NCBI GenBank assembly: GCA_963806325.1
Contig: CAWDXL010000002.1
Location: forward strand, 128,802-192,801
From: Candidatus Parcubacteria bacterium
Lineage (GTDB): Bacteria > Patescibacteriota > Minisyncoccia > Phycocordibacterales > JAKAEA01
Reading direction: 5' to 3'
Length of the DNA: 64,000 bases
Below the pieces are notes generated by a model that worked only from the letters and a program-made list of their open reading frames with translations, was not told the DNA's origin and searched no databases. The position numbers and the translations under genes were made by a program. This document shows positions 39,868-57,570 of this stretch, piece by piece. How positions within the stretch are numbered: position 1 is the stretch's first letter; the number at the start of each line of letters is the position of its first letter.

Positions 39868-40824
39868 CTAGCATGCCTTCTTAATTAAAAGGTATTGACC
39901 TGTTTGAGTATAGAATTTTACTTTTCCTTTGCATTTTTCTGCATACTGCAAAATATCCTTTTTTCTTAAAAATCTAAAATTTGAAAAAAGTTCAGCATTT
40001 AAGAAATGTGGATGGTTCCAACCCACAATGGTTTGTGGAATAATAACCATCCAGCTCCTAAAACCATCGTACTCAAAAATATTCTCCGTGATATTATTTA
40101 TCACAGCATCAAATTTTGGTTGCAATGTTAATGGTAGATGGTGTTTGAAAAGCGAGTGATAGATTATGTTAAAATATTTTTTGGGAAAAAATTTATCAAG
40201 ATTAAAAATATCATTTTTACATAAAATAAGTACCACCTTTTTTTGAGATGTTCTTTTTATAGATTCAACCTTAGTCTCATCTAAATTTTCTACCTCGTAA
40301 AAGTCTATCTTGTCAAAAATACCCTTAAGATTGTCTTTTGCAATTACTTGAGTTGTGGGTGATTTATCAACCGCAATCATAACAATCTTATGTTTAAAGT
40401 TAGAGGAAAGTATTTTTTTAATTATCTGATGATCAAGTTCCATGCCACCTGCACCAAGGTCAGCCATTACCACATCACTATTCTGTGAAAAAATAAAATT
40501 TGTTATTGTCTCAACAATAGGTTTAACAAGACCAGGTCTATCCTTTTCTTGCATCTCAATAAGTCTTTTATGCATCAACACATCCCACTCCTCCACTGGA
40601 AAATCAGTGAGTTCCAAGAGCTTTAAGCTATCGAGCTTAGGAGCCCGGAAAAAAAGCCACTTGAGATACGTCGGAAAATTTTTGATAGCCTTAAGAAAGG
40701 CAATATTCTCTTCTATTGCATACATTTCATCTTTATACTCAGGATTTTTCTTAAACGACTCCAATTTTTCAAGAGCACTTTTAATCTCGATATCTCGTGT
40801 GTTTTGCATATTATTTGTATTCAA
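39868..40824 (-). CDS. class I SAM-dependent methyltransferase
   Basis: Motif I 'VVMADLGAGGMEL'. It overlaps the upstream nitroreductase gene by 14 nt, which suggests an operon. Confidence 0.65.
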   Translation of the reverse strand: MNTNNMQNTRDIEIKSALEKLESFKKNPEYKDEMYAIEENIAFLKAIKNFPTYLKWLFFRAPKLDSLKLLELTDFPVEEWDVLMHKRLIEMQEKDRPGLVKPIVETITNFIFSQNSDVVMADLGAGGMELDHQIIKKILSSNFKHKIVMIAVDKSPTTQVIAKDNLKGIFDKIDFYEVENLDETKVESIKRTSQKKVVLILCKNDIFNLDKFFPKKYFNIIYHSLFKHHLPLTLQPKFDAVINNITENIFEYDGFRSWMVIIPQTIVGWNHPHFLNAELFSNFRFLRKKDILQYAEKCKGKVKFYTQTGQYLLIKKAC

Positions 40825-41863
40825 TCTGTGGCTCCATTCTCATTGCTCGTGCCGATGGGGCATCAGCATAGCCGAGGCGCATAAGCATGGGGATTTTCTT
40901 TCCTTGCACACCGAACGTATCCTCGATGGCATGATAGGCCTCATCTATTGCCTTCAGATGCTCTTTAGAAAAAGAAGCCGTGTCTCCTCCATCTATTCTC
41001 AGTTTAAAATAAAGCACGCCCGTGCATGGGTGTATGCTAAGGCCAAGTTTTGTAGCGGTGAGCCATACCCGCTCGACGGCCCTGCCTGCATTTATATAAT
41101 CTTTGTCGGTGCTTGCTTGTATTACGATCACGCCGAGTGCGGCAGATTTTGCATACTTCTCAGCATTTTCTTTTTCAATAGCTTTTGAGACTCCAGCAAT
41201 ATTAAAAATTTTCAAAATAGCCCAGCTTTTAAAAATTTTTACAGCTTTAAGCTGATGAGGTAAAAATTCGAGCGTCTTGATATAGAATCCCCCGGCTTTA
41301 TACTGCTCATTTTCATTCCATAAAATATGATTATAGAAAAAGGTGTGGAGAGCTTTATTCTCAAAAATGATCCGCTCATTGAGAGCAATTGCCTTCCCTG
41401 CTTTATCAAGAGACGGCTGATCATCAATAATTTTAAATTCACCAAATCCAGTACCTCTTGCATTTTCTATGAGTGCCTTTTTTTGATCATTATTAAGTTT
41501 GACGGGAGTATTTTCTTTTCTGTTGGTGCCGCGCAACGGTATCACCTGATACAAATCATCCTCTTTGATCGCTGATTTTTCCAAAGTCACTACCGAAACA
41601 AGATTTTTAATATTCTTATCGGGCAATACAGCTACGCTTGCTCTATATCCAAAGTGCGAAGCGCTGATAACAATATTTTCTATCAGGGCTCCGTGTGCTA
41701 CAAGGGAGCCTTTTTGCTCAAAATTGTACAGAGACTGATCTGCTTCCGGAATAATAAAAATAGAAATTTTGTTGCCCTCTACAATAAACTTCCATGGCTG
41801 GCAATTTTCTCCCGACGGAGCTTTGACACCATCGGTTATTATTTTTTGGATGTCATTGTTCAT
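40811..41863 (-). CDS. nitroreductase-fold FMN oxidoreductase, two-lobed/tandem architecture
   Basis: 'APSGENCQPWKF' at the N-terminus, with a second nitroreductase-like half ('AALGVIVIQAS...AGRAVERVWLTATKLGL'). Total length 350 aa. Confidence 0.65.
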   Translation of the reverse strand: MNNDIQKIITDGVKAPSGENCQPWKFIVEGNKISIFIIPEADQSLYNFEQKGSLVAHGALIENIVISASHFGYRASVAVLPDKNIKNLVSVVTLEKSAIKEDDLYQVIPLRGTNRKENTPVKLNNDQKKALIENARGTGFGEFKIIDDQPSLDKAGKAIALNERIIFENKALHTFFYNHILWNENEQYKAGGFYIKTLEFLPHQLKAVKIFKSWAILKIFNIAGVSKAIEKENAEKYAKSAALGVIVIQASTDKDYINAGRAVERVWLTATKLGLSIHPCTGVLYFKLRIDGGDTASFSKEHLKAIDEAYHAIEDTFGVQGKKIPMLMRLGYADAPSARAMRMEPQIEYK

Positions 41864-42903: not shown

Positions 42904-43752
42904 TTATAATGCAGATATAAATCTTAGAAAATTTCGACTCTCAGTTTCGGGTAGTAGACTGCCTAGCTTTGTATTTGGAGTATATGTAGCACCATGCCAA
43001 TCACTTCCACCAGTTATGACTAAATTATATTTTTTTGCAAGCTTTTCTAGAGTATTTATCTGCTCTGGAGTATGTGAAGGATAATATACTTCAATACCCT
43101 GTAGTCCGCACAACACAAGTTCACTAATGAAGTTTTCATAATTTTCTTCGATCCAAGCCTCTCATAAATTCTGCCCGAATGTGCAATGACCACAATCCCG
43201 CCGTTTTTCTTTATGAGATCTATAACAGTCTTTGGATTAAACATCCACGAATCGTCTTCCTCAACAAATACATATTGTTTAAGGGCATCTTTGATTGTGA
43301 TTTTTTGTTTTAAAAAAAGACATACTAAGCGTGCAAGTGTGTTTCTTGTAATATATTGTTCGTGATGTTTATTATATATATTCTTCAAAATTTAGGTTTA
43401 TTCCCGGTAGCTCTCTGTTTATTTTTTCGATAATTTTTTTAGCTCGGATATTATATCCATCAATGACCGGTTTCAAGGCACTATTTATCTCGAGATTAAA
43501 TTTCTTAGAATATCCGAGCATGTGTATTGATATATTCCTTTTTTTATCGATACATGAAATTTCTATACCATCTACAAAGTATACATTGATCGCTTTTGCA
43601 TCGCGCTTGATATCCTGTACTTTAGGACTAATATAATTATGATCTACGACTGAAAAAAGTGATATACCACTTTCTTTGATTTTAGAAAGTACATATTTAG
43701 GGGAATGCTCTCCGTCTGAATAGTATGAGTGAATGTGAAGATCTGTTTTCAT
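42904..43752 (-). pseudogene. PHP-domain phosphoesterase split across three reading frames
   Basis: 43372..43752 carries 'DLHIHSYYSDG'. 43056..43388 carries 'GGIVVIAHSGR'. 42904..43116 carries 'GIEVYYPSH...ITGGSDWHG'. All three are collinear with one PHP protein. Confidence 0.6.
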
Positions 43753-45945: not shown

Positions 45946-46578
45946 TCAAATTAGCCTCTGTTTATTTATTTCTTCATAAGTGAGATTGAATCCGTATTCT
46001 TTTGTGAAAGATTCTTCAAACTTCTCTTTTGTTTTAATATTCTTTAAATTTTTAATAAAATTGAGCAACTTTTGCTTGCCAAATTTTTCAACGAGACCAT
46101 CAACAAAAAAACCTGCTTCGCTATATACCTCTTTTCCTCCAACTTCATAAAACTCAAGGAATTTACTAAATACTATCGGTTTTTTCTTGAATTTAATTTG
46201 ACCCGATGTATATATTGCAACACCCTCATTGAGCCATACAGGTGTATGGTTTCCGCCTGCAAGAATATTATAAAAAGAGTGGCTTAGTTCGTGCTTTATT
46301 AATGCAGAGTACTCATCTGGGTGGTACACATGATCACTCTCTTTTCCAAAATTATCCTTATTTAATATATATACTGTTTTCCCTTCTGACCAACCGACTA
46401 TCCATTTCTCAGTTTCCTCACCTTTCAAAAGATTGATAGTTTCACGATTATCAACAATAACGATTTTGGGAAGATGGTGTATCCAGTTAATTTCATAGAA
46501 AATATTTAAATCACTCATTGAATTCTTATATACACTTTCCAGAAAATCATCTTTTGTTAAATTTATTTTAAATATCAT
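45946..46578 (-). CDS. gluzincin-type (peptidase MA-like) zinc metallopeptidase
   Basis: 'IKHELSHSF' (HExxH) followed by 'WLNEGVAIY', which is M1-like HExxH...NEG geometry. Confidence 0.55.
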   Translation of the reverse strand: MIFKINLTKDDFLESVYKNSMSDLNIFYEINWIHHLPKIVIVDNRETINLLKGEETEKWIVGWSEGKTVYILNKDNFGKESDHVYHPDEYSALIKHELSHSFYNILAGGNHTPVWLNEGVAIYTSGQIKFKKKPIVFSKFLEFYEVGGKEVYSEAGFFVDGLVEKFGKQKLLNFIKNLKNIKTKEKFEESFTKEYGFNLTYEEINKQRLI

Positions 46579-46608
46579 GTTTGTAGTTAAATTGTAGCAT
46601 AAAATAAA

Positions 46609-46639
46609 AGGAGAGGTCGGGGTTTAATCCGCCTCTCCT
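46609..46639 (-). terminator. hairpin (attenuator/partial terminator) immediately after the Cys-rich peptide ORF
   Basis: aggagagg-N16-cctctcct, followed on the minus strand by TTTATTTTATG. Confidence 0.35.
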
Positions 46640-46645
46640 GTCGTT

Positions 46646-46777
46646 CTACTTATCACAGTCACTGGCGCAGTCACATGAGACACAGTCGTAGCAGGCACCG
46701 TTGTCACACGACAGACTTTGTGTGCCAGTCCGTACTTCCGTCTCCACAAGAGACACGAAACCATCTTCTTGCTGCAT
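46646..46777 (-). CDS. 43-aa Cys/Asp-rich putative RiPP precursor peptide (MQQEDGFVSLVETEVRTGTQSLSCDNGACYDCVSCDCASDCDK)
   Basis: Absent from the ORF track because it is under 60 aa. It has a strong RBS (GGAGGTG-N9-ATG). The core carries 6 Cys and 5 Asp in its C-terminal 20 aa. It lies 42 nt downstream of the rSAM/SPASM gene. Confidence 0.6.
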   Translation of the reverse strand: MQQEDGFVSLVETEVRTGTQSLSCDNGACYDCVSCDCASDCDK

Positions 46778-46819
46778 GATAATTATCACCTCCTTTCTAT
46801 TTGAATGTACTATTAATTT

Positions 46820-48133
46820 TTATATCAATGATACAGCATTGCGACGTGCAAGTCCCCACACAAACTCCTGTGGATCAAGTCCCCACCAGTCAATTGTTTT
46901 GGTAACAATGTTGTATGTGGTCTCAGATTTCAACTGACTTAATACAGCAAAACCGTTGTGATCCAAAAACACGTTATTATTACTAGAAACAAAGACCCCG
47001 CCAAAAGCTTCCCTTCTTAATCTAAAAATTGGCGTTTTAAAACAGCCGATTGAAACTTTCTGTGGATGTTTCTTTGAAAGTTTAATGGCCTCTATCATTT
47101 CTTCGACATGATCAAGTGCAGTTAGGGAGTCCAACCCATTAATTTTACCGGTACTAGTTTTTGCCTCCATCCGACAACCGGAACCGCACATGTTAAGCAT
47201 GTTGCAAGTCGAGCACTCGGTAGGGACATTGACTCTTTGGCTCCACGGATCCATTTTTGCCCAAATCGTACCAAGGTCTTCTTTTAGTAAATTCCCACAT
47301 GATGTGTCGAGATGAGGACAAGGCCTCACTGAACCATCGTATGAGATAGTGGCTGTAGTAACTCCCGCATTACATCTTCTCGACGTAAATAGTTCTGGGT
47401 GTTTGACGCCATACAAACCACAATACGGGATTGGCTCAAGACTATCCACATGAAGGCCGAGATTTTCGTGGATCCAACAAAGGTCGTTGAGAAACTGAAT
47501 TAATTGCGGTCGATTTACTTGTAGATGAGAGAAGTCTGAACAGTTTCCAGGACATCCGGCTTTAGTTGCCATGAAGTTATTGATTCCGAGCTTGGCAACA
47601 AATTTTGCTGTTTCTATCACTTGACCGTGATTAATTTGAGAAACAACCATATTCGCCGATACTCGAATTCCAGCATCCTGAGCATTTTTGATTCCTTCAA
47701 CCAATTTTCTAAAAGACCCCTGTCTTTGGGTAATGGAGTCGTGTATCTCAGGGGTGGGACCTAGAATCGAGGTTAGTGTATGATCAAGTCCTGCGCGCTT
47801 AAGACTTCTTGCTTTTTCTACAGTAAGTGGCACAAGATTTGAATTTAAACCAACCCCCATATTCATTGATCGAGCATACTCGATGCTCGAGAGAGTTGTT
47901 GTAAAATTAAGAAGAGGTTCCCCACCAGTTATGCTCACATTAAATACTTCAGCCTCACCAAGTTTTGCAAGTATGCTTAAGGCATCTTTTTCACTGAGTG
48001 AAACATTCTGTAAACAAGATGCTGTCTTCTCGTCTTTTTCCCTCCAAAAATTATAGCAATGAACGCATCTACTCGTACATTCTCCAGTGACTTCAATCTG
48101 GACATTAAGTGGCGATCTCAATCTCTTGTTCAT
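46820..48133 (-). CDS. radical SAM / SPASM-domain peptide-modifying enzyme
   Basis: CxxxCxxC 'TGECTSRCVHCYNF' and a C-terminal SPASM Cys cluster ('CNAGVTTATISYDGSVRPCPHL ... CSTCNMLNMCGSGC'). The start is ATG 48133 with an AGGAG RBS. Confidence 0.8.
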   Translation of the reverse strand: MNKRLRSPLNVQIEVTGECTSRCVHCYNFWREKDEKTASCLQNVSLSEKDALSILAKLGEAEVFNVSITGGEPLLNFTTTLSSIEYARSMNMGVGLNSNLVPLTVEKARSLKRAGLDHTLTSILGPTPEIHDSITQRQGSFRKLVEGIKNAQDAGIRVSANMVVSQINHGQVIETAKFVAKLGINNFMATKAGCPGNCSDFSHLQVNRPQLIQFLNDLCWIHENLGLHVDSLEPIPYCGLYGVKHPELFTSRRCNAGVTTATISYDGSVRPCPHLDTSCGNLLKEDLGTIWAKMDPWSQRVNVPTECSTCNMLNMCGSGCRMEAKTSTGKINGLDSLTALDHVEEMIEAIKLSKKHPQKVSIGCFKTPIFRLRREAFGGVFVSSNNNVFLDHNGFAVLSQLKSETTYNIVTKTIDWWGLDPQEFVWGLARRNAVSLI

Positions 48134-48206
48134 GAATGACTCCTGTGCTTTTGGCACATAAAACAATTGTCAAAAAACTCTATTTTTGATAGTAATACCA
48201 TTAAAA

Positions 48207-48229
48207 TTGTTGTCTATATCCAACAACAA
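48207..48229. promoter_or_regulatory. palindromic operator site 4 (TTGTTGTC-tatatcc-AACAACAA)
   Basis: Minus-strand TTGACA-N17-TTTTAT lies upstream. The site is ~75 nt before the rSAM ATG (48133). Confidence 0.55.
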
Positions 48230-48627
48230 TAAAATAACATCTTAACGTATGTGTCAAAACCTGTTGAAAGACTGAAACATATAACAGTATTTAATCTAGG
48301 GAAAATTTAGCTGTTTATTTTTACTTCATAACAACTATTTTTATGGCTGTACTGATTTCTGGGATAAGTTGTTATGAAAATCAAACAGATGTGATTTGAC
48401 AAAAAAATTAGCTGAGAATATTATATGGCACATATTATGCGAATATATTTCGACTGTCAGCAGCAGATACTAACGCCCCAGCAGATGCAACATCTGTCGC
48501 TTTTGTATAGCCGAAACATATTTAGCTAACCCTCAAACCTAAATATATCCCGGCTGCACAAAAGCCGGGACTTTTGTGCAGTATGCGTTCTTTCCAGTTC
48601 TTTGGTCTTATTGTGAAGGAGTTCCCT

Positions 48628-48861
48628 ATGTGGGGAATGGCACAAGTTGTAGCCGTTGATACTTTCTCTACTTTGGAGAAGCTCAAGTCTCATGATCTGC
48701 GTCAACTCGCCAGGAGTCTGGATCCTGAGCACAGATCTCTCGTTGCTCAACAAATGGATACACCTGATGATGTGTTAAGAGATCTATCTGTTGATGGGTC
48801 ATCGGAAAAAGTTCGTATGGCCGCAAAATCCACGCTGCAGAAGAAGTATCCTCACGGTTGA
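48628..48861 (+). CDS. small hypothetical protein (77 aa)
   Basis: GAAGGAG RBS 6 nt before the ATG at 48628. It overlaps the competing minus-strand ORF 48526..48753, which lacks an RBS. Confidence 0.4.
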   Translation: MWGMAQVVAVDTFSTLEKLKSHDLRQLARSLDPEHRSLVAQQMDTPDDVLRDLSVDGSSEKVRMAAKSTLQKKYPHG

Positions 48862-48947
48862 GGTGTTGTCCGTGCGGCAAACGGGCTCCTAAAAAGGGCG
48901 ACTATCGTCTAGTTGCCCTTTTTCTTTTATTATCTATCGATAATATT

Positions 48948-50129
48948 CTATAATCCGAAAATTTTCTTAAAATTATCAGCGACTTCTTTGCGGTGAGCCA
49001 CTTGCTCCGGAGTATTGTAATGCGGATTCAATATGCTATCCATAACGATAAGAGAGCGGTTTGATTCAAGCGGCTGTTTGTTTAAGATTCTGCGTACACA
49101 GTATGCAACAGCGGCACCATTGACGAGTGCTGCACCGCCAAGCTGCGGCCACGAAACAATCGTTTTCCCCATTTCCATGAGCGATTGCTGCATGCGCTCA
49201 GTGACATTTTCTGGTCCGACATGCTGAGTAATTGTTTTGCCGATGCCAAATTTATCAAGCTTGCTCAATGATTCATAGGTCACCCCAGGAAGCCTGCCTT
49301 GGAAAAATGGGGTGTTTCGATCGAGATCGTATCGTTCAACATCAACGACCGCATTGTCACCGTTGTCTGCAGCCATGACAATTGGCACACGGTGTTTCTT
49401 GGCATTTTCGCGAATGAGAAATTTTACGGCAAGATTGTCGAGTTCATCAATCATGACATCAAGCCCTTTGACAAAGGTATCAACATTGTCAGGCTGAATA
49501 CCGTCAGGAAATGTTTCCACAACGGCGTAAGGATTGATTTCATAAATAAATCGGGCAGCCATATTCACTTTAAGCACTCCGAGATTGTCGACGCCGGAAA
49601 GAATCCTATTTGTATTTGAAAGCGCGAGGCGATCCATGTCGGCGAGCTTCATGTGCTTTGCTCCGCCTTGAAGCGCAAGAGCAAACGCTACACTCGATCC
49701 GACACTCAGTCCACCAATGCCAACGGTGGCGTTATAAAATTTGTCCTGCTCTTCCTGATTGATAAGGTTTCTGTTGCGGGCTGTGCGCACCATCTGAAAA
49801 TCAGCTTCCGGCAAAACATGAGTCAATTTTGAAATCCACGGGAAAAATACCCACAAGCCATGCTGCCAGAGAGGCTGGATTTTCTGCAAATTTTCATAAA
49901 ATGCTTTAAATTCCTGCCTGTACGTCGGGGTATATACTTTTGTCGGATTTTTGACGCCAAAAAGCTCAAGCTGCTCTTCTTCATAATCGTCAACAATGTG
50001 CTGAATGCTGCCATTATCAAAAAGCTTACTTACCGCAGCCCTGTCTTTCTCGTCTGAGAGATTAAAAAGAACAGGCTTTGATGAAATGTCTCTATTTGCT
50101 TCCTGCGTCAATTTTTTGGCAAGGTCCAT
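48948..50129 (-). CDS. ThiF/MoeB-family E1-like adenylyltransferase with ~120-aa N-terminal extension
   Basis: Rossmann motif 'NATVGIGGLSVGSSVAFALALQGG' and 'DVMIDELDNLAVKFLIRENAKKHRVPIVMAADNG'. Confidence 0.65.
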   Translation of the reverse strand: MDLAKKLTQEANRDISSKPVLFNLSDEKDRAAVSKLFDNGSIQHIVDDYEEEQLELFGVKNPTKVYTPTYRQEFKAFYENLQKIQPLWQHGLWVFFPWISKLTHVLPEADFQMVRTARNRNLINQEEQDKFYNATVGIGGLSVGSSVAFALALQGGAKHMKLADMDRLALSNTNRILSGVDNLGVLKVNMAARFIYEINPYAVVETFPDGIQPDNVDTFVKGLDVMIDELDNLAVKFLIRENAKKHRVPIVMAADNGDNAVVDVERYDLDRNTPFFQGRLPGVTYESLSKLDKFGIGKTITQHVGPENVTERMQQSLMEMGKTIVSWPQLGGAALVNGAAVAYCVRRILNKQPLESNRSLIVMDSILNPHYNTPEQVAHRKEVADNFKKIFGL

Positions 50130-50252: not shown

Positions 50253-51239
50253 TTGGAGGATATTATGAGTCTGTTCGTTGATATGATGGCATTTCCGCAA
50301 CGGCAAACGATGCCTATGTTCTTCGGTGCCGACTTCCCGCGGCCGGCTATTGTCTTCTGCACGGCCGCACCCCCTCTCATCACTTCTTCGGAAGAAATTC
50401 TCGTTGAGGTCAGAAAAACACTGCAGACGCTTAAGGCGCAGCCTGGCGTTACAGTCGTGCGCAAAGCTGCAGACATCACAGACCTCTCAAACGGTATCAA
50501 GGTTGTGCTCGGCCTTCAACATCCCCCACTGGATGCTACTCCCGCGGTCATGATCAGTCTTCGGAAGCTTGGTATCCGCTTCATGACTATCGCGTACAAA
50601 GGTGAAAATATTTATGGAGGCGGATTTCTTAGCAATAAGAGCCTCACAGCTGCCGGCAGCAAATTTCTTCAGATGCTCCAGGAGGCCGGAATGTGGATGG
50701 ATTTCTCCCATATCGGGCATGCCACGGCGCGCGACATTCTTAAAGAATACAAGTATATCCGCTTCCCGATTCTGGCCACCCACACAGGTGCGTACAAAGT
50801 GTACGACAATCCCCGCAATCTTCCCGTGGACATCCTTGAAGGCATTGTGCGACATCATGGTGTTGTGGGTCTATACACCCTCACCTTCGGACTTGACGCA
50901 AGCGACAATTCCCTCGAACCGTTTCGGAGGCATCTGATGCATCTTTTACAGGTGTGCGGCGAAAACTCTGTGGCTATCGGCACTGATGGAATCTATGAGA
51001 CAATGACAGTCGCGGCGCAGCGCGCTCAATTCGAACTCATGAACAAACATGTTGATACCGATGGTCGGATGCGTTCGCGTCATCCTGTCGAACCTCTCCC
51101 GTTAAACGGTGCCAACAAGGATATCGTCCTTCGTGGATATCTGGCCGACTGGCTGGGAGCTTCCGCTGCACATTCCGAAGATCTTGTGAACTGTGTCATG
51201 TTTGGAAACGCCCTCAATTTTTTGCGGGCAAATCTTTGA
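50253..51239 (+). CDS. membrane-dipeptidase-like (peptidase M19) protein
   Basis: 'VVLGLQHPP', 'LGIRFMTIAY', and 'GMWMDFSHIGHATARD'. GC content is clearly higher than in the flanking genes. Confidence 0.6.
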   Translation: MEDIMSLFVDMMAFPQRQTMPMFFGADFPRPAIVFCTAAPPLITSSEEILVEVRKTLQTLKAQPGVTVVRKAADITDLSNGIKVVLGLQHPPLDATPAVMISLRKLGIRFMTIAYKGENIYGGGFLSNKSLTAAGSKFLQMLQEAGMWMDFSHIGHATARDILKEYKYIRFPILATHTGAYKVYDNPRNLPVDILEGIVRHHGVVGLYTLTFGLDASDNSLEPFRRHLMHLLQVCGENSVAIGTDGIYETMTVAAQRAQFELMNKHVDTDGRMRSRHPVEPLPLNGANKDIVLRGYLADWLGASAAHSEDLVNCVMFGNALNFLRANL

Positions 51240-51313: not shown

Positions 51314-52864
51314 TTATTTCTTGACCCATTTCTGCTTGGTGCCGAGGCCAAAGTGTGTCGGATCGCCATGCGGCCAAAAGACGATGCGGGGATCAACACG
51401 TCCCGGGAGCATATGCGCATTATTTTTATGTTCAGCGCTTTTTTCAAGCAGAGACTCTGAAATTTTGTTTTGTACTTCCGATTTGAGCCAGTCTGACTCT
51501 ATAATCCCCTGCTTTAATTCCACATTAATGCTGAGAAACTCATTCTGATCGCTGTCATGCTCGGTCGACATTGTGAATTTTCCGGTTATATATTTATCAA
51601 TGCTCGGATGCTGGAGACCTCCTTTGATATATTCAGGGAAAATAATGGCGCCATAGAGCTTTGTAGAAAGATCTGTACGTTCGTACACATACACGAAAGG
51701 CAACTCAGCAATGGTGTCTTCAATACCCGCCTCATGTGCCTTTTTGCGAAGATCAAAACCTTCTTCCTTAAAAATATTTTCGACATCATTAAAATCCATT
51801 ACGCCGCCGTTGTCGCCGATTTCGTAGCGCAGGAGCGGCAGGGCATTGCTTCCGCTGCAGTAGACTTTGCCGTCTATTTCTTCAAAATTGATGAAGTGAG
51901 GATTAAATTGGGCAAACGTTGGCAACCGATTAGCCTCTTTAAAAAGCTTTGTATAGAGATTTTTATGCTTGAGTGCCAGACGACGGATAAAAATGCTGAG
52001 AGGAGTTTCCTGCGCCATGGTGCCAAGATCGGCGCTGCCATAGACATTCATTGTGTCGCGCAGTACATTTTTAATACCGGTCTTCTCCAAAATGTATTCG
52101 CGGAATTTTTCTGAAAATCCTTCAGCGGCAAAAATTATTTTAAGATTATAATTGTGCCAGAACACCCCATGATCTTCTCCTTCATCGATCACGTCTTTCA
52201 TAAATGGTGGATAGCCACAGAGAATGACCTGATCAAATTTGCCGCCGATATTTTTAAGCGCCTCGTAAATTTCTTTTTTGTTGACGCCTGGTGTAAGAAT
52301 AGTAAGCGGATATCCGCGCTCAGAAATTGTTTTAAAAGCTTCGTATGTAATGACACCGCCAATCCAGACACCCATGCCAAAACATACAAGCACGAGCGTC
52401 GATTTTTCCTTATCAATATTGCTTGTCTTTAAAAACATTTCATGACAAATGGACGATTGCCAGTCAAGAATACTGTTGCGAGGAAAATAAAATGGCGCAC
52501 CGGTGGAGCCTGACGTTGACGTAAATACAAGCGATTGCGTAAGCGTTCCCTGCATACAGAGTTCTTCTAATAGATACTGCCGAAGATAATTTGCCTTATT
52601 CATAATAGGAACTTTCTTGAAATCTTCATATGTTTTTATCTTTACTGGATTGATGCCGTGAGTCTTAAGAAATGGTTTGTAAGCCGGAACTTTGTCTACG
52701 CAAATGTTAAAAAGCCGCACAAGCTGTGCCTCGCGTTCAGCTTTCCAAAAATCACCTTTTTTTGAATAGATAAATCGTAGAAAATCAAGCGGTCGGGCAA
52801 GCTGCGATTTTGTCCGCTTTGATCCAGTCTTCAATGCTGTTTTTTTTGAAATTGCTTTTGCCAT
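51314..52864 (-). CDS. adenylate-forming enzyme, phenylacetate-CoA ligase (PaaK)/CapK-like family
   Basis: AMP-binding motif 'TSGSTGAPFYF', 'YGSADLG', and a C-terminal PaaK-like domain. Confidence 0.65.
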   Translation of the reverse strand: MAKAISKKTALKTGSKRTKSQLARPLDFLRFIYSKKGDFWKAEREAQLVRLFNICVDKVPAYKPFLKTHGINPVKIKTYEDFKKVPIMNKANYLRQYLLEELCMQGTLTQSLVFTSTSGSTGAPFYFPRNSILDWQSSICHEMFLKTSNIDKEKSTLVLVCFGMGVWIGGVITYEAFKTISERGYPLTILTPGVNKKEIYEALKNIGGKFDQVILCGYPPFMKDVIDEGEDHGVFWHNYNLKIIFAAEGFSEKFREYILEKTGIKNVLRDTMNVYGSADLGTMAQETPLSIFIRRLALKHKNLYTKLFKEANRLPTFAQFNPHFINFEEIDGKVYCSGSNALPLLRYEIGDNGGVMDFNDVENIFKEEGFDLRKKAHEAGIEDTIAELPFVYVYERTDLSTKLYGAIIFPEYIKGGLQHPSIDKYITGKFTMSTEHDSDQNEFLSINVELKQGIIESDWLKSEVQNKISESLLEKSAEHKNNAHMLPGRVDPRIVFWPHGDPTHFGLGTKQKWVKK

Positions 52865-53042: not shown

Positions 53043-54433
53043 TTAATCAGCTTTTATTTTAGAAAAAATAGTCTTAATGAGTGCTTCAAAACCGGCAATA
53101 TTTACCGTGGTCCCATCTAAATTATTAACATCAAACATCTCTTTTTCAGGATCTGTATTTATTATGAGTACACTCGCTTGACGTTTTTCCGCAAACTGAG
53201 CTTGTTTGCCGAGACTTTCATCGTCTTTGTAAAACACTTCCGTTTTGATTCCCTGTTCTCGAAGTTTTTCTGCAAGAGCATTGGCCTGGACTCGCTCATC
53301 ATTTTTCTCATCTTTAGCAATAGGCTTAATACCAATGACAACATCTACCGTTGATTTTTTTGCGGCTGTTCCCAGCTTTTCATGTTTCATAATATCAAGC
53401 AGACGCGTCAGCCCAATAGAAATGCCGACACCGGGCAGCGTTCGGCTGATAAATTTTCCAGCCAAATCAGCATAGCGTCCGCCGGAGCAGATGCTGCCGT
53501 ATTTTTCCAGGTCATCAATTGTTGTCTCAAAAACTGTACCTGTGATATTCTAATCCCCGAGCAATTTTAAGATCAACAACAAATTTTCCAGTCCTCGCTC
53601 TCGTATGACGGAGAAACTCAGCTACTTCTTTTAGTTCAGCAAAACCGAGTGTTAAATTTTCTGAACTATCATTGCGCGCAGCATTCTCAGCGGTCAAGCG
53701 GTGATGAATACGATCCAATGTCTCGATATTTTGGATATCTATTTTTTTATCTAAAATATCTAAAATTTCAAACGCCGTCTCCTTGCTGATGCTGAGTTCT
53801 TTTGTGAGAGAATCCTGAGTAGCCTCTTTGCCAACCTTATCAAATTTATCAATGATGCGCATGGCTGCAGGAACATCGGAAACTCCAAAAGTTTCAATGA
53901 TTCCCTGCAGGAATTTTCTGTTGTTGATGTGAATCGTAAAATTACCGAATTCAAAGCCCTCAAGAATTTTGAATGCTACTGCAGCCACTTTCAGCATCAA
54001 AATGAAGTGGTAATGCACCGTTGGCAACAACATCAATATCCGCCTGATAAAATTCTCGGAACCTGCCTTTTTGCGGGCGCTCCCCCCTCCACACTCTTTG
54101 AATTTGGTAGCGTTTGAACGGGAAAATTAAATCCTCATAATGTTGCGCCGTATACCGTGCAAACGGTACAGTGAGATCAAAGCGAAGCGCTCTATCCGAC
54201 TCGCCAGCTTCGGCGTCGCCCTCACCAAGTGCCCGGGAGATAGTATAAATCTCTTTATTAATTTCACCTTTTGTGGAAAGCGTATCGAGATATTCAACTG
54301 CTGACGTTTCGAGCGGAACATAGCCAAAAAGCTCAGCCTCTTTTCTAATGCTCGCTTTGAGCTTTTCTTCGACAATTTGTTCTTCCGGAAGATTTTCAGG
54401 AAAACCGCTTGGATTATGATACTTATGCGACAT
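53043..54433 (-). CDS. hisS: histidine--tRNA ligase, reading frame interrupted twice (near 53990 and 53490)
   Basis: The N-terminal part shows 'RFDLTVPFARY' and 'KRYQIQRVWRGERPQKGRFREFYQADIDV'. The middle part shows 'FEFGNFTIHINNRKFLQG' and 'ARGLEY'. The C-terminal part shows 'GGRYADLAGKFISRTLPGVGISIGLTRL' plus the anticodon-binding domain. All are collinear across three ORFs. Confidence 0.75.
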
Positions 54434-55655: not shown

Positions 55656-57570
55656 TTACTTAGTCTCTCCTGTTCCTGGCTGGGCTGAATCAGTACCCGG
55701 CTCCTTGGTCTCAGCATCACGCACCGTTCCTTCTGGATTTGGCGGCGTCTGAGCGGCAGAGGCTGCACTATTCATGGCTTGCCCTATTTTTTGAATTTCA
55801 GCCGAGAGTGCTTCTGTAGCTCTTTTGATATCATCAATGTTCGGAGTTGTAGCATCTTTAGCAGTTTTGAGTTCGGCCACTTTTGCCTCAACGGATGTTT
55901 TGACATCAGCCGGCACCTTGTCGCCTGCGTCTTTCAAAGCTTTTTCAGAGGTGTAAACGAGCTGTTCGGCAATGTTTTTCGCTTCAACAATGTCTTTCTT
56001 TTTTTGGTCGTCAGATGCATGCATTTTCAGCGTCTTTTTGCATTTTCTGAATATCTTCTTTTGAAAGACCGGAGCTGCCCTGAATAGTGATCGACTGTTC
56101 TTTGCCTGTTGTTTTTTCTTTTGCTTTTACATTCAAGATACCGTTGGCATCTACGTCGAGCGATACTTCTACTTGAGGCATGCCCCGAGGAGATGGCGGA
56201 ATACCGTCGAGAATAAATTTGCCGAGCGACTTATTGTCGGCAGCCATGACACGCTCGCCCTGGACAATGTGAATTTCTACCGATGTCTGATTATCAGCTG
56301 CTGTTGAGAATACTTGAGAACGAGATGTTGGAATTGTGCTATTTTTCTCGATGAGTTTTGTAGCAACACCACCCATAGTTTCGATACTCAATGAAAGCGG
56401 AATAACATCCAAAAGGAGAATGTCTTTGACGTCTCCGGAAATGACGCCTCCCTGGATAGCAGCACCAACAGCCACTACTTCATCGGGATTGACACCCATG
56501 TGTGGATCTTTGCCGAAATACGCTTTCACGGCCTGTTGCATTGCCGGCATGCGGGTTTGTCCCCCAACGAGCACAACTTCATTAATATCAGCAATTTTAA
56601 ACGGTGAGGCTTCGACAGCGCGCTTGGTGATTTCCATGGCGCGATTGATAAATTCCCGAGTCAACTCTTCAAGCTTTGCTCGTGTCAAACTCGTTACAAG
56701 ATGCTTCGGGCCATCGCTGCCTGAGGAAATAAACGGGATATTGATTTCAGCCTGCACCGCAGATGAAAGCTCGATCTTGGCTTTTTCTGCTGCTTCATCA
56801 AGGCGCTGTACAGCCAGCGAATCTTTCATGAGATCAATGCCATTTTCTTTTTTGAATTCTCCGGCGAGCCATGCAATAATTTTCTGATCGATATCTTTTC
56901 CACCCAGGTGAGCATCGCCGTCGACCGATTTTACCTCCACCACATCACCGCCAACTTCTAGAATCGAGATATCGAACGTACCGCCGCCGAAATCGAAGAC
57001 AGCGATTTTTTCATCTTTCTTTTTGTCGGAACCATACGCAAGCGCTGCAGCCGTCGGCTCGTTGATGATACGCTTCACGTCGAGACCTGCGATTTTGCCG
57101 GCATCCTTTGTCGCCTGACGCTGAGCATCATTAAAATATGCAGGCACCGTAATCACCGCCTCAGTAATTTTTACTCCCAGTTTTGCTTCAGCATCAGCCT
57201 TAAGCTTCTGAAGAATCATTGCCGAGATTTCTTCTGGACGATACCATGCATCACCCATCTTCACCTCGATGCCTCCATTCGTTGATTTGCGCGTTTCAAA
57301 TGGCACAGATTTTATGTCCTTTTGAACAGCGGGTTCATCATAGTTGTGGCCGATGAAGCGCTTGATCTGATAGATCGTATTTTTTGGATTTGTGACTGCC
57401 TGTCTGCGTGCGAGCAAACCGACAATTCTTTCACCTGTTTTTGACTGGGCGACAATCGATGGAGTCGTACGTGCACCCTCAGTATTCTCAATAATTCGTG
57501 CTTCGCCCCCCTCCATGACCGCTACCGCGGAATTTGTGGTACCGAGATCGATACCGATAATTTTTGCCAT
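55656..57570 (-). CDS. dnaK: molecular chaperone DnaK (Hsp70), frame broken by a 4-nt tandem duplication near 56018-56025
   Basis: 56011..57570 shows '[14 protein letters not shown]', 'DLGGGTFD', and the SBD. 55656..56024 encodes the C-terminal lid. The junction 'gcatgcat' would read in frame ('KDAENASDDQKK') with a single gcat. Confidence 0.85.

Follow-up and report, generated by a model that had tools for sequence, protein, structure and literature searches.

A stretch of 64,000 nucleotides from a Candidatus Parcubacteria bacterium (GenBank assembly GCA_963806325.1, contig CAWDXL010000002.1, positions 128,802 to 192,801; hereafter the window) contains, on its minus strand at 46646..46777, a small open reading frame (ORF) that is very likely the precursor gene of a peptide that is made on the ribosome and then modified post-translationally (RiPP). 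The predicted precursor would be served by two neighbours, a radical S-adenosylmethionine (SAM)/SPASM enzyme and a zinc metalloprotease. A RiPP precursor had already been proposed in an initial annotation made from the DNA letters. This reading is now strengthened, as a SPASM enzyme with a predicted RiPP recognition element (RRE) adjoins the ORF, a zinc protease gene lies downstream, and related ORFs combine a conserved leader with a variable core. The enzyme and the protease had gone unmentioned in that annotation, and they provide the decisive context. The locus presents four features of the generic radical SAM/SPASM class of RiPPs, namely an enzyme with a CxxxCxxC motif, a SPASM domain, an RRE and an adjacent, co-inherited precursor.

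The precursor gene runs from an ATG at 46777 to a TAG at 46648..46646 and encodes 43 amino acids plus a stop (MQQEDGFVSLVETEVRTGTQSLSCDNGACYDCVSCDCASDCDK), which can be split into leader and core as MQQEDGFVSLVETEVRTGTQSLS|CDNGACYDCVSCDCASDCDK. The leader region (residues 1-23; 46709..46777, minus strand) contains the conserved motif EDGFVSLVE and comprises no Cys, four acidic residues and three Thr. The core region (residues 24-43, CDNGACYDCVSCDCASDCDK; 46649..46708, minus strand) holds six Cys and five Asp, the precursor as a whole having six Asp. A Shine-Dalgarno sequence, GGAGGTG (46787..46793, minus strand), stands 9 nt before the ATG. The start codon, this spacing, the length, the Cys-free leader of 23 residues and the Cys/Asp-rich last 20 residues are all as originally described. 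The window has 688 ORFs with a length of 25-90 aa. At least six Cys are found in eight of them, and only the precursor ORF carries the leader motif in addition, which argues that it is more than a chance ORF. A search of the window by leader motif and Cys count found no second copy. The description of the gene as unannotated is likewise correct: a collection of ~15 billion predicted proteins lacks the exact 43-aa sequence but contains both flanking genes, on the same contig, via NCBI, ENA and Logan. Comparison of the precursor with NCBIfam (E <= 0.01) and Pfam matched no family, and neither library (June 2026) models the precursor family.

Judged from its homologs, the precursor ORF encodes a protein, is conserved and evolves under purifying selection. 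Protein databases yielded a single homolog of the precursor (P0001, 68% identical), which is encoded on two contigs, L001 and L002. The longer, L001, has the gene order radical SAM gene, peptide, Peptidase_MA gene; L002 starts just before the peptide. A protein search with the family profile recovered four database proteins, all unnamed or termed 'hypothetical protein'. Because small ORFs are mostly not called, most homologs were recovered from the DNA beside the enzyme gene. The close comparison set consists of seven relatives whose neighbouring enzymes are 60-72% identical to that of the window, giving eight sequences with the window itself. Every close relative has a Cys/Asp-rich ORF of 40-62 aa downstream of the enzyme gene with a Shine-Dalgarno sequence before it; of the seven sequences in the close set that are distinct, the window being one, six have it in the AAAGGAGGT type, and it is weaker (TTGAGGTA) in the pair L116/L117. 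Only one of the six reading frames, the proposed one, is free of stops in all eight sequences. The proportion of differing non-synonymous sites (pN) ranges from 0.20 to 0.38 among the close relatives, compared to 0.46-1.0 for synonymous sites (pS); these measures are used in place of dN/dS, the corresponding rate ratio, as synonymous sites are saturated and dS is undefined for most pairs. Between the window and L001, differences at codon positions 1, 2 and 3 number 10, 9 and 26 over 41 codons. Their 20-residue cores are separated by 10 synonymous and two non-synonymous codon changes, and DGFVSLVE is intact despite six synonymous changes. The ORF is thus taken to be coding, given that its frame is kept open and that changes fall mainly at third codon positions. 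The codon-level conservation in homologous loci that the initial annotation had named as a check is therefore present.

The adjoining gene (46820..48133, minus strand) encodes a radical SAM/SPASM peptide maturase of 437 aa. A mechanically derived ORF begins 11 codons earlier, with a TTG at 48166. The ATG at 48133 was adopted as the start because a GGAG stands 7 nt upstream of it and because the corresponding database protein (P0002, 100% identical) is 437 aa long. Pfam recognizes the domains Radical_SAM (PF04055, 1.9e-20) and SPASM (PF13186, 8e-7). The CxxxCxxC radical SAM cluster motif (GECTSRCVHCYN; 48056..48079, minus strand) is formed by C19, C23 and C26, which are nearly invariant in an alignment of 32 sequences. 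Seven Cys of the SPASM auxiliary-cluster region (47174..47422, minus strand), C238, C254, C272, C307, C310, C316 and C320, are invariant in the alignment of 32 homologs (A1) and include the patterns C-x12-G-x4-C and CX2CX5CX3C. The enzyme thus has the full seven-Cys SPASM motif, as for two auxiliary [4Fe-4S] clusters.

The enzyme reaches no NCBIfam equivalog cut-off. The best-scoring curated family is GeoRSP (TIGR04303; 102.7 bits against a cut-off of 400, E 2.8e-29), with a match that covers model positions 1-321 of 325, and scores against WgkB (94 bits, cut-off 650), SkfB (TIGR04403; 57.6 bits, cut-off 300) and PapB (NF047865; 55.7 bits, cut-off 340) are likewise far below threshold. By a profile of 32 homologs, the solved structures nearest to the enzyme are SkfB (6efn, 9e-25) and PqqE; further down the list stand SuiB, TigE, anSME and CteB (5wgg, E 6e-10), intermixed with radical SAM enzymes outside RiPP biosynthesis, BlsE and MoaA among them. 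The AlphaFold (AF2) model of the enzyme has a mean predicted local distance difference test (pLDDT) score of 89.3, and its best matches among PDB folds are SkfB, SuiB, anSME, TigE, ChlB and PqqE, all of them peptide-modifying SPASM/twitch enzymes. The nearest named relative, 57% identical, comes from a metagenome-assembled genome (MAG) of Candidatus Paceibacterota. The ranthipeptide rule of antiSMASH, or similar generic rules, may already flag the enzyme.

Fused to the C-terminus of the enzyme is a PqqD-like winged helix (46823..47044, minus strand), which is predicted to have the RRE fold and is presumed to bind the leader. It occupies the ~75 residues after the SPASM domain; modelled alone (pLDDT 89.2), it forms a sheet of three to four strands, after which come helices. 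The RRE is evident by structure only, as the isolated C-terminal domains of seven homologs gave no PqqD match in Pfam. AlbA, SkfB, ThnB and CteB carry an N-terminal recognition domain (PMC8172795). The window's enzyme has none, since its radical SAM motif begins at residue 19. RRE-like domains of this kind are also found in stand-alone proteins of ~100-125 aa (P0125-P0132 and others) and are repeated in two proteins of ~2,800-3,250 aa (P0124, P0150).

On the other side of the precursor gene lies that of a Peptidase_MA_2 zinc metalloprotease (45946..46578, minus strand; 210 aa), which bears the motifs HELSH ... NEG and matches PF13485 above its cut-off (2.7e-9). Its co-occurrence with the precursor makes it a candidate leader peptidase. 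In 32 loci, the gene after the precursor encodes a homolog of the protease; in ~14 more, the homolog is present elsewhere in the locus, in most of which it directly follows the enzyme, with stop and start overlapping. M1-type zinc peptidases serve leader removal in class III lanthipeptides, consistent with such a role.

The family extends well beyond the close relatives. Scanning one genome per species with an enzyme profile identified 79 loci, and a metagenome scan added 31. Most of the 79 belong to Patescibacteria, including MAGs labelled Paceibacterota, Kaiser-, Nomura-, Woese-, Levy-, Davies-, Yanofsky-, Collier- and Saccharibacteria. A number of contigs carry the labels Bdellovibrionota, Deltaproteobacteria, Omnitrophica or Nanoarchaeota, though the taxon labels of MAGs may be unreliable. 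In 100 loci, the enzyme gene is complete at its 3' end and has 250 nt or more of sequence after it. A small ORF whose last 35 residues include four or more Cys is present in 72 of these loci (three of the 72 look like false positives) and usually starts less than 80 nt past the enzyme stop. In most of the remaining loci, the ORF lies after the protease, lies upstream of the enzyme (L020, L029) or was missed by the start filter (L001, L010). The precursor is physically linked to the enzyme family in about a hundred loci, in three gene orders, and almost every one of the related loci has a short Cys-rich ORF next to the enzyme gene.

In close relatives, the leader motif E-(E/D)-G-F-V-S-L-V-E is conserved and the Cys/Asp core varies. 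In the family at large, a loose leader pattern, G-(F/I)-x-(S/T)-(L/I)-(L/V), is present in about half of the sequences, and the core types are distinct (CDCYDCDYNCEECD, CQCVNCRSCDNxCNK and PPPPCVGRPPPPC). Leaders that are conserved, joined to cores that vary highly, are the usual pattern of RiPPs. Family cores consist of 27% Cys and 18% Asp, with Cys-Cys spacings mostly of 2-4. Across 71 of them, an acidic residue (Asp or Glu) follows Cys directly in 45% of cases (position +1, z 12) and precedes it in 34% (position -1, z 5.9), with a weak signal at +4 (z 2.2). When 32 family members were compared with NCBIfam (E <= 1) and Pfam, the only matches were two marginal, composition-driven ones to the FibroRumin Cys-rich RiPP model (E 0.002).

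Several clades depart from the arrangement seen in the window. A sister clade of Levybacteria type (L021-L023, L026, L086-L091 and L099) has the order enzyme, protease (with overlapping stop and start), precursor; its precursors combine a PQFVSILNG leader with Cys/Pro-rich repeat cores such as PPLPPPCVGRPPPPCVGRPPEPCYG. Cores of the CQCVNCRSCDNxCNK type, accompanied by an FF(V/I)N..E(V/I)INR leader, are common in Saccharibacteria-labelled contigs. On the 7690-bp ENA contig Hain_H51 (L114), the enzyme-precursor-protease cassette and its downstream genes are present twice, reflecting either a tandem duplication or an artefact of circular or repeat assembly. Four paralogous enzyme loci (L024, L035, L052 and L077) occur in a single 'Deltaproteobacteria' MAG, Pcl387_bin54, at least three of them with their own distinct Cys-rich precursor.

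Signals that may govern transcription surround the precursor gene. Upstream of the enzyme ATG at 48133, an AT-rich stretch contains a promoter-like site (TAGACA-16-TACTAT; 48189..48216, minus strand; nine of 12 consensus positions matched in a consensus scan), a candidate operon promoter by pattern only. Downstream of the precursor is a hairpin with T-tract that resembles an intrinsic terminator (46601..46639, minus strand). The stem (46639..46609) begins six bases past the precursor stop and comprises 11 pairs with a one-base bulge and an 8-nt loop, its uninterrupted part being the eight pairs AGGAGAGG/CCTCTCCT; the T-tract TTTTATTTT follows at 46609..46601. In a 71-nt context, the folding energy is -24.2 kcal/mol (z = -5.5), which none of 200 shuffles equalled. 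A simple terminator scan gave no call at the hairpin, owing to the bulge. The location and arrangement of hairpin and U-tract had been correctly recognized at the outset; the stem is longer than the 7-8 bp then given. By the criterion of a T-tract-anchored fold of -10 kcal/mol or better, 49 of 68 loci have a hairpin abutting a T-tract no more than 90 nt from the precursor stop, compared to 2-5 of 68 at three control positions; the hairpin is therefore a conserved part of the system. The earlier comparison to an attenuator is upheld to this extent; the sequence is compatible with an attenuator as well as with a full terminator.

Right after the T-tract, and 12 nt before the protease ATG, stands an extended -10-like element (TGCTACAAT; 46591..46599, minus strand). 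The exact pattern TGnTAnnAT occupies this place in the window, L113 and L001, in the form TGnTAnAAT, and lies farther from the T-tract in L118; one-mismatch variants were read by eye in L114 (TGATATAAC) and L115 (TGTTATACT). In the window's clade, the protease gene has no Shine-Dalgarno sequence, and its ATG is 12-20 nt after the -10-like motif. The abutment of this motif on the T-tract and the missing Shine-Dalgarno sequence suggest that the protease of this clade may be expressed from a separate, nearly leaderless transcript. The motif is a pattern match only and is no general trait of the wider family. Other clades have the protease ATG directly against the T-tract, such that read-through would be required.

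A working model for the locus can be drawn from these features. The operon would consist of a promoter, the radical SAM/SPASM maturase gene, the precursor gene, the terminator-like hairpin and the gene of the MA-clan zinc protease. The hairpin would end or attenuate transcription, so that precursor mRNA exceeds protease mRNA. In line with what is established for SPASM RiPP maturases (PMC8172795, PMC9413430), the RRE would bind the leader, the motif of which would join it as a further beta-strand. The enzyme would then reductively cleave SAM, and the resulting 5'-deoxyadenosyl radical would abstract a hydrogen from a core residue. Cys thiols, delivered via an auxiliary cluster, would form bonds to the carbon atoms of acceptor residues and thereby yield several intramolecular thioether bridges; the acceptors would most likely be the Asp, which are abundant here and serve this role in ranthipeptides. 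The MA-clan protease would finally remove the leader. The product might act in antagonism, signalling or metal binding. PapB forms its thioethers between the sulfur of Cys and the Asp beta-carbon, and its substrates may have the form Cys-Xn-Asp with n = 0-6 (PMC9413430, PMC8172795); on this analogy, Asp would be the most plausible acceptor in the window's core. Thioether chemistry specifically has a chance that we place just under even. Two observations weigh against thioethers to Asp: family cores depart from the CX3D rule, with Asp mostly adjacent to Cys, and sister clades have cores without Asp. The estimate takes account of both.

That the peptide is a substrate of the radical SAM enzyme that acquires some other modification, such as thio-oxazoles, formylglycine, epimerized residues or C-C/C-O cross-links, is rather unlikely, though it is the foremost competitor to thioether formation. 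In that case, the Cys might partly act as cluster ligands or form disulfides. The best NCBIfam match of the enzyme, GeoRSP, points in this direction: its member SbtM (Lewis et al. 2021) is reportedly a Cys/Sec-cyclising enzyme that forms a Cys-derived thio-oxazole. The best fold matches include anSME, and anSME-like chemistry would oxidize Cys to formylglycine; the proximity of Asp to Cys in place of CX3D spacing and the Asp-free core types of the same enzyme family also fit poorly with Cys-to-Asp thioethers. Against other modifications, all of the family hits are far below their cut-offs, and the closest solved relative by both sequence and fold is the thioether-forming SkfB. Furthermore, the combination of SPASM domain, RRE and many Cys has so far most often signified the thioethers of sacti- and ranthipeptides (PMC8172795). 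A different question is whether the product stays inside the cell, as a peptide-derived cofactor (cf. pyrroloquinoline quinone (PQQ) and mycofactocin) or as a metal-binding peptide for the producer's own use. The retention of the cluster in many reduced-genome Patescibacteria and some DPANN-labelled MAGs would accord with such a product, as would the CxC/CxxC spacing with flanking carboxylates, which resembles metal-binding sites, the presence of PqqE among the nearest relatives, and the finding that no exporter or immunity gene is conserved in related loci. We nevertheless regard an intracellular product as improbable. The core is highly variable between close relatives with a conserved leader, as in diversifying RiPP natural products, whereas the cofactor precursors PqqA and MftA have conserved cores; moreover, some genomes have several paralogous clusters, as in the MAG with four loci.

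Two further explanations would deny the peptide any role as a product. If the ORF were a regulatory leader peptide, its translation would sense Cys- and Asp-tRNA and thereby control the hairpin and protease expression, the peptide itself being functionless. The layout is formally that of attenuation: the ORF is short and rich in two amino acids, a terminator hairpin begins within six nucleotides of it, and a gene comes next. Yet the amino acids of the N-terminal motif are conserved through many synonymous changes, and the ORF tracks the radical SAM gene and not the protease gene, as it occurs in loci that have no protease, behind the protease gene or upstream of the enzyme. No alternative anti-terminator pairing was seen, though no search aimed at one was made. 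Given also that the enzyme carries a peptide-recognition domain, a purely regulatory role is very improbable. Least probable of all, to the point of being negligible, is a chance ORF in an intergenic spacer. Small ORFs are indeed abundant in the window, as counted above, and the gene callers of the source record made no call here. The conserved frame, the codon-position bias, the Shine-Dalgarno sequence and the conserved motif all argue the contrary, as does the fact that dozens of distant genomes have such an ORF next to the same enzyme; as far as computation can reach, the comparative data refute a chance ORF. A RiPP precursor acted on by the neighbouring enzyme and protease accounts best for these observations.

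Among characterized systems, the ranthipeptide freyrasin of Paenibacillus polymyxa (PapA/PapB) provides a close likeness to this RiPP system, with a small precursor, an N-terminal leader and a SPASM maturase. The freyrasin core has about six Cys and six Asp, compared to the six Cys and five Asp of the window's core. However, the enzyme falls far short of the PapB cut-off, and the core has a single C-x3-D (C32..D36) in place of freyrasin-type CX3D spacing. In contrast to the PapA/PapB system, no curated precursor model is related to the leader motif, the RRE is C-terminal, the conserved partner is a Peptidase_MA gene, and the hosts are Patescibacteria rather than Firmicutes. The SCIFF/thermocellin ranthipeptides of Clostridia (CteA-CteB) similarly have six Cys in ~45 residues beside a SPASM maturase with an RRE. 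The window's precursor matches no SCIFF precursor model, though, and the SCIFF maturase model is not in the best 25 of 70 families for its enzyme. SCIFF cores are highly conserved, those of the window's family highly variable; the RRE of CteB is N-terminal (PMC8172795), that of the window's enzyme C-terminal. The position of the precursor gene after the enzyme gene is a further difference from SCIFF.

SkfB, the maturase of sporulation killing factor (with its relatives AlbA and ThnB), is a leader-dependent enzyme that forms Cys thioethers and, as predicted for the window's enzyme, has an RRE and auxiliary clusters. The enzyme nevertheless scores well below the SkfB cut-off and differs in architecture: in SkfB, the RRE is N-terminal and a twitch domain carries a single auxiliary cluster (PMC8172795); the window's enzyme has a seven-Cys SPASM domain and its RRE at the C-terminus. 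Sactipeptide cores are not Asp-rich, unlike the window's. GeoRSP, the family of SbtM, is likewise a peptide-modifying SPASM enzyme acting on Cys or Sec, and its model matches end to end. The score is only about a quarter of the cut-off, however, and the locus has no selenocysteine context and an unrelated precursor.

Other genes near the cassette were considered as members of the cluster. The ThiF-like, nitroreductase-like, PaaK-like and M19 genes were rejected, as none is conserved beside the enzyme in homologous loci; a nucleotidyltransferase gene, another neighbour, is likewise not found beside the enzyme in related loci. The ThiF-like gene (48948..50129, minus strand) and the double-nitroreductase-like gene (40811..41863, minus strand) match the two halves of the 'Rv1355c family' model NF005901, which represents a fused protein, the former its N-terminal half (1.7e-96) and the latter its C-terminal half (7e-60). 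They are on the same strand, 7 kb apart, and flank the radical SAM cassette; as a pair, they resemble the E1-like and dehydrogenase partners of other peptide-modification systems. Between the ThiF-like and radical SAM genes are 780 bp without a long ORF (48167..48947). This interval contains a strong promoter-like sequence (TTGACA-17-TATTAT; 48396..48424, plus strand), a 95-aa ORF with no Pfam match (48574..48861, plus strand) and a 14-bp bidirectional terminator-like hairpin (48891..48923). The Peptidase_M19 (membrane dipeptidase) gene (50253..51239, plus strand) lies in a patch of raised G+C content (0.52, compared to 0.30-0.45 around it) and adjoins the gene of the PaaK-like adenylating enzyme (51314..52864, minus strand). 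No RNA family, riboswitch or tRNA gene was detected in the whole 64-kb window using Rfam at gathering thresholds and ARAGORN.

Some genes elsewhere in the window, essential ones among them, appear to be split. Histidyl-tRNA synthetase (53043..54433, minus strand) is represented by three ORFs, corresponding to the N-terminal catalytic, middle and anticodon-binding domains; DnaK (55656..57570, minus strand) by a 519-aa ORF and an overlapping 122-aa ORF; and a PHP-domain gene (43056..43752, minus strand) by two parts. Such splits reflect either pseudogenes or indel errors of the assembly, with the pattern suggesting indel errors. Despite these split genes, the frames of the precursor, the enzyme and the protease are unbroken and consistent with those of their homologs.

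The kind of system described here, a Cys-rich RiPP modified by a radical SAM/SPASM enzyme, is already well known. Literature searches yielded no description of this precursor/enzyme family in the candidate phyla radiation (Patescibacteria), only general surveys of biosynthetic gene clusters. Such clusters are as a rule described as scarce or lacking in Patescibacteria: of two surveys of MAGs, one reports none (PMC11613949) and the other nine (PMC8692599). Distinct from known systems are the enzyme clade with its C-terminal RRE, the precursor family and its leader motif, the MA-clan protease partner and the Patescibacteria-centred distribution. A compact three-gene peptide-modification cassette recurs across many minimal-genome lineages of Patescibacteria, with a precursor invisible to routine annotation. 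Its substrate of 43 aa, enzyme of 437 aa and protease of 210 aa provide a concrete, testable entry to chemistry that Patescibacteria may use on their hosts or neighbours. A profile built from the collected sequences would recover a precursor family that is missed by gene callers and family libraries. The clade with a C-terminal RRE and variable Cys/Asp, Cys/Asn and Cys/Pro cores would also be of interest for PapB-like peptide-cyclisation biocatalysis.

A bolder proposal, which we consider unlikely yet consequential, is that this is the type locus of a large Patescibacteria RiPP family whose product, with an undescribed cross-link or a metal-binding function, acts between episymbionts and their hosts. 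If true, the cross-link might join Cys to a neighbouring Asp or Asn, giving very small rings; alternatively, the product would bind metal through polythiolate and carboxylate groups. The family would in addition reach contigs labelled DPANN archaea and Bdellovibrionota.
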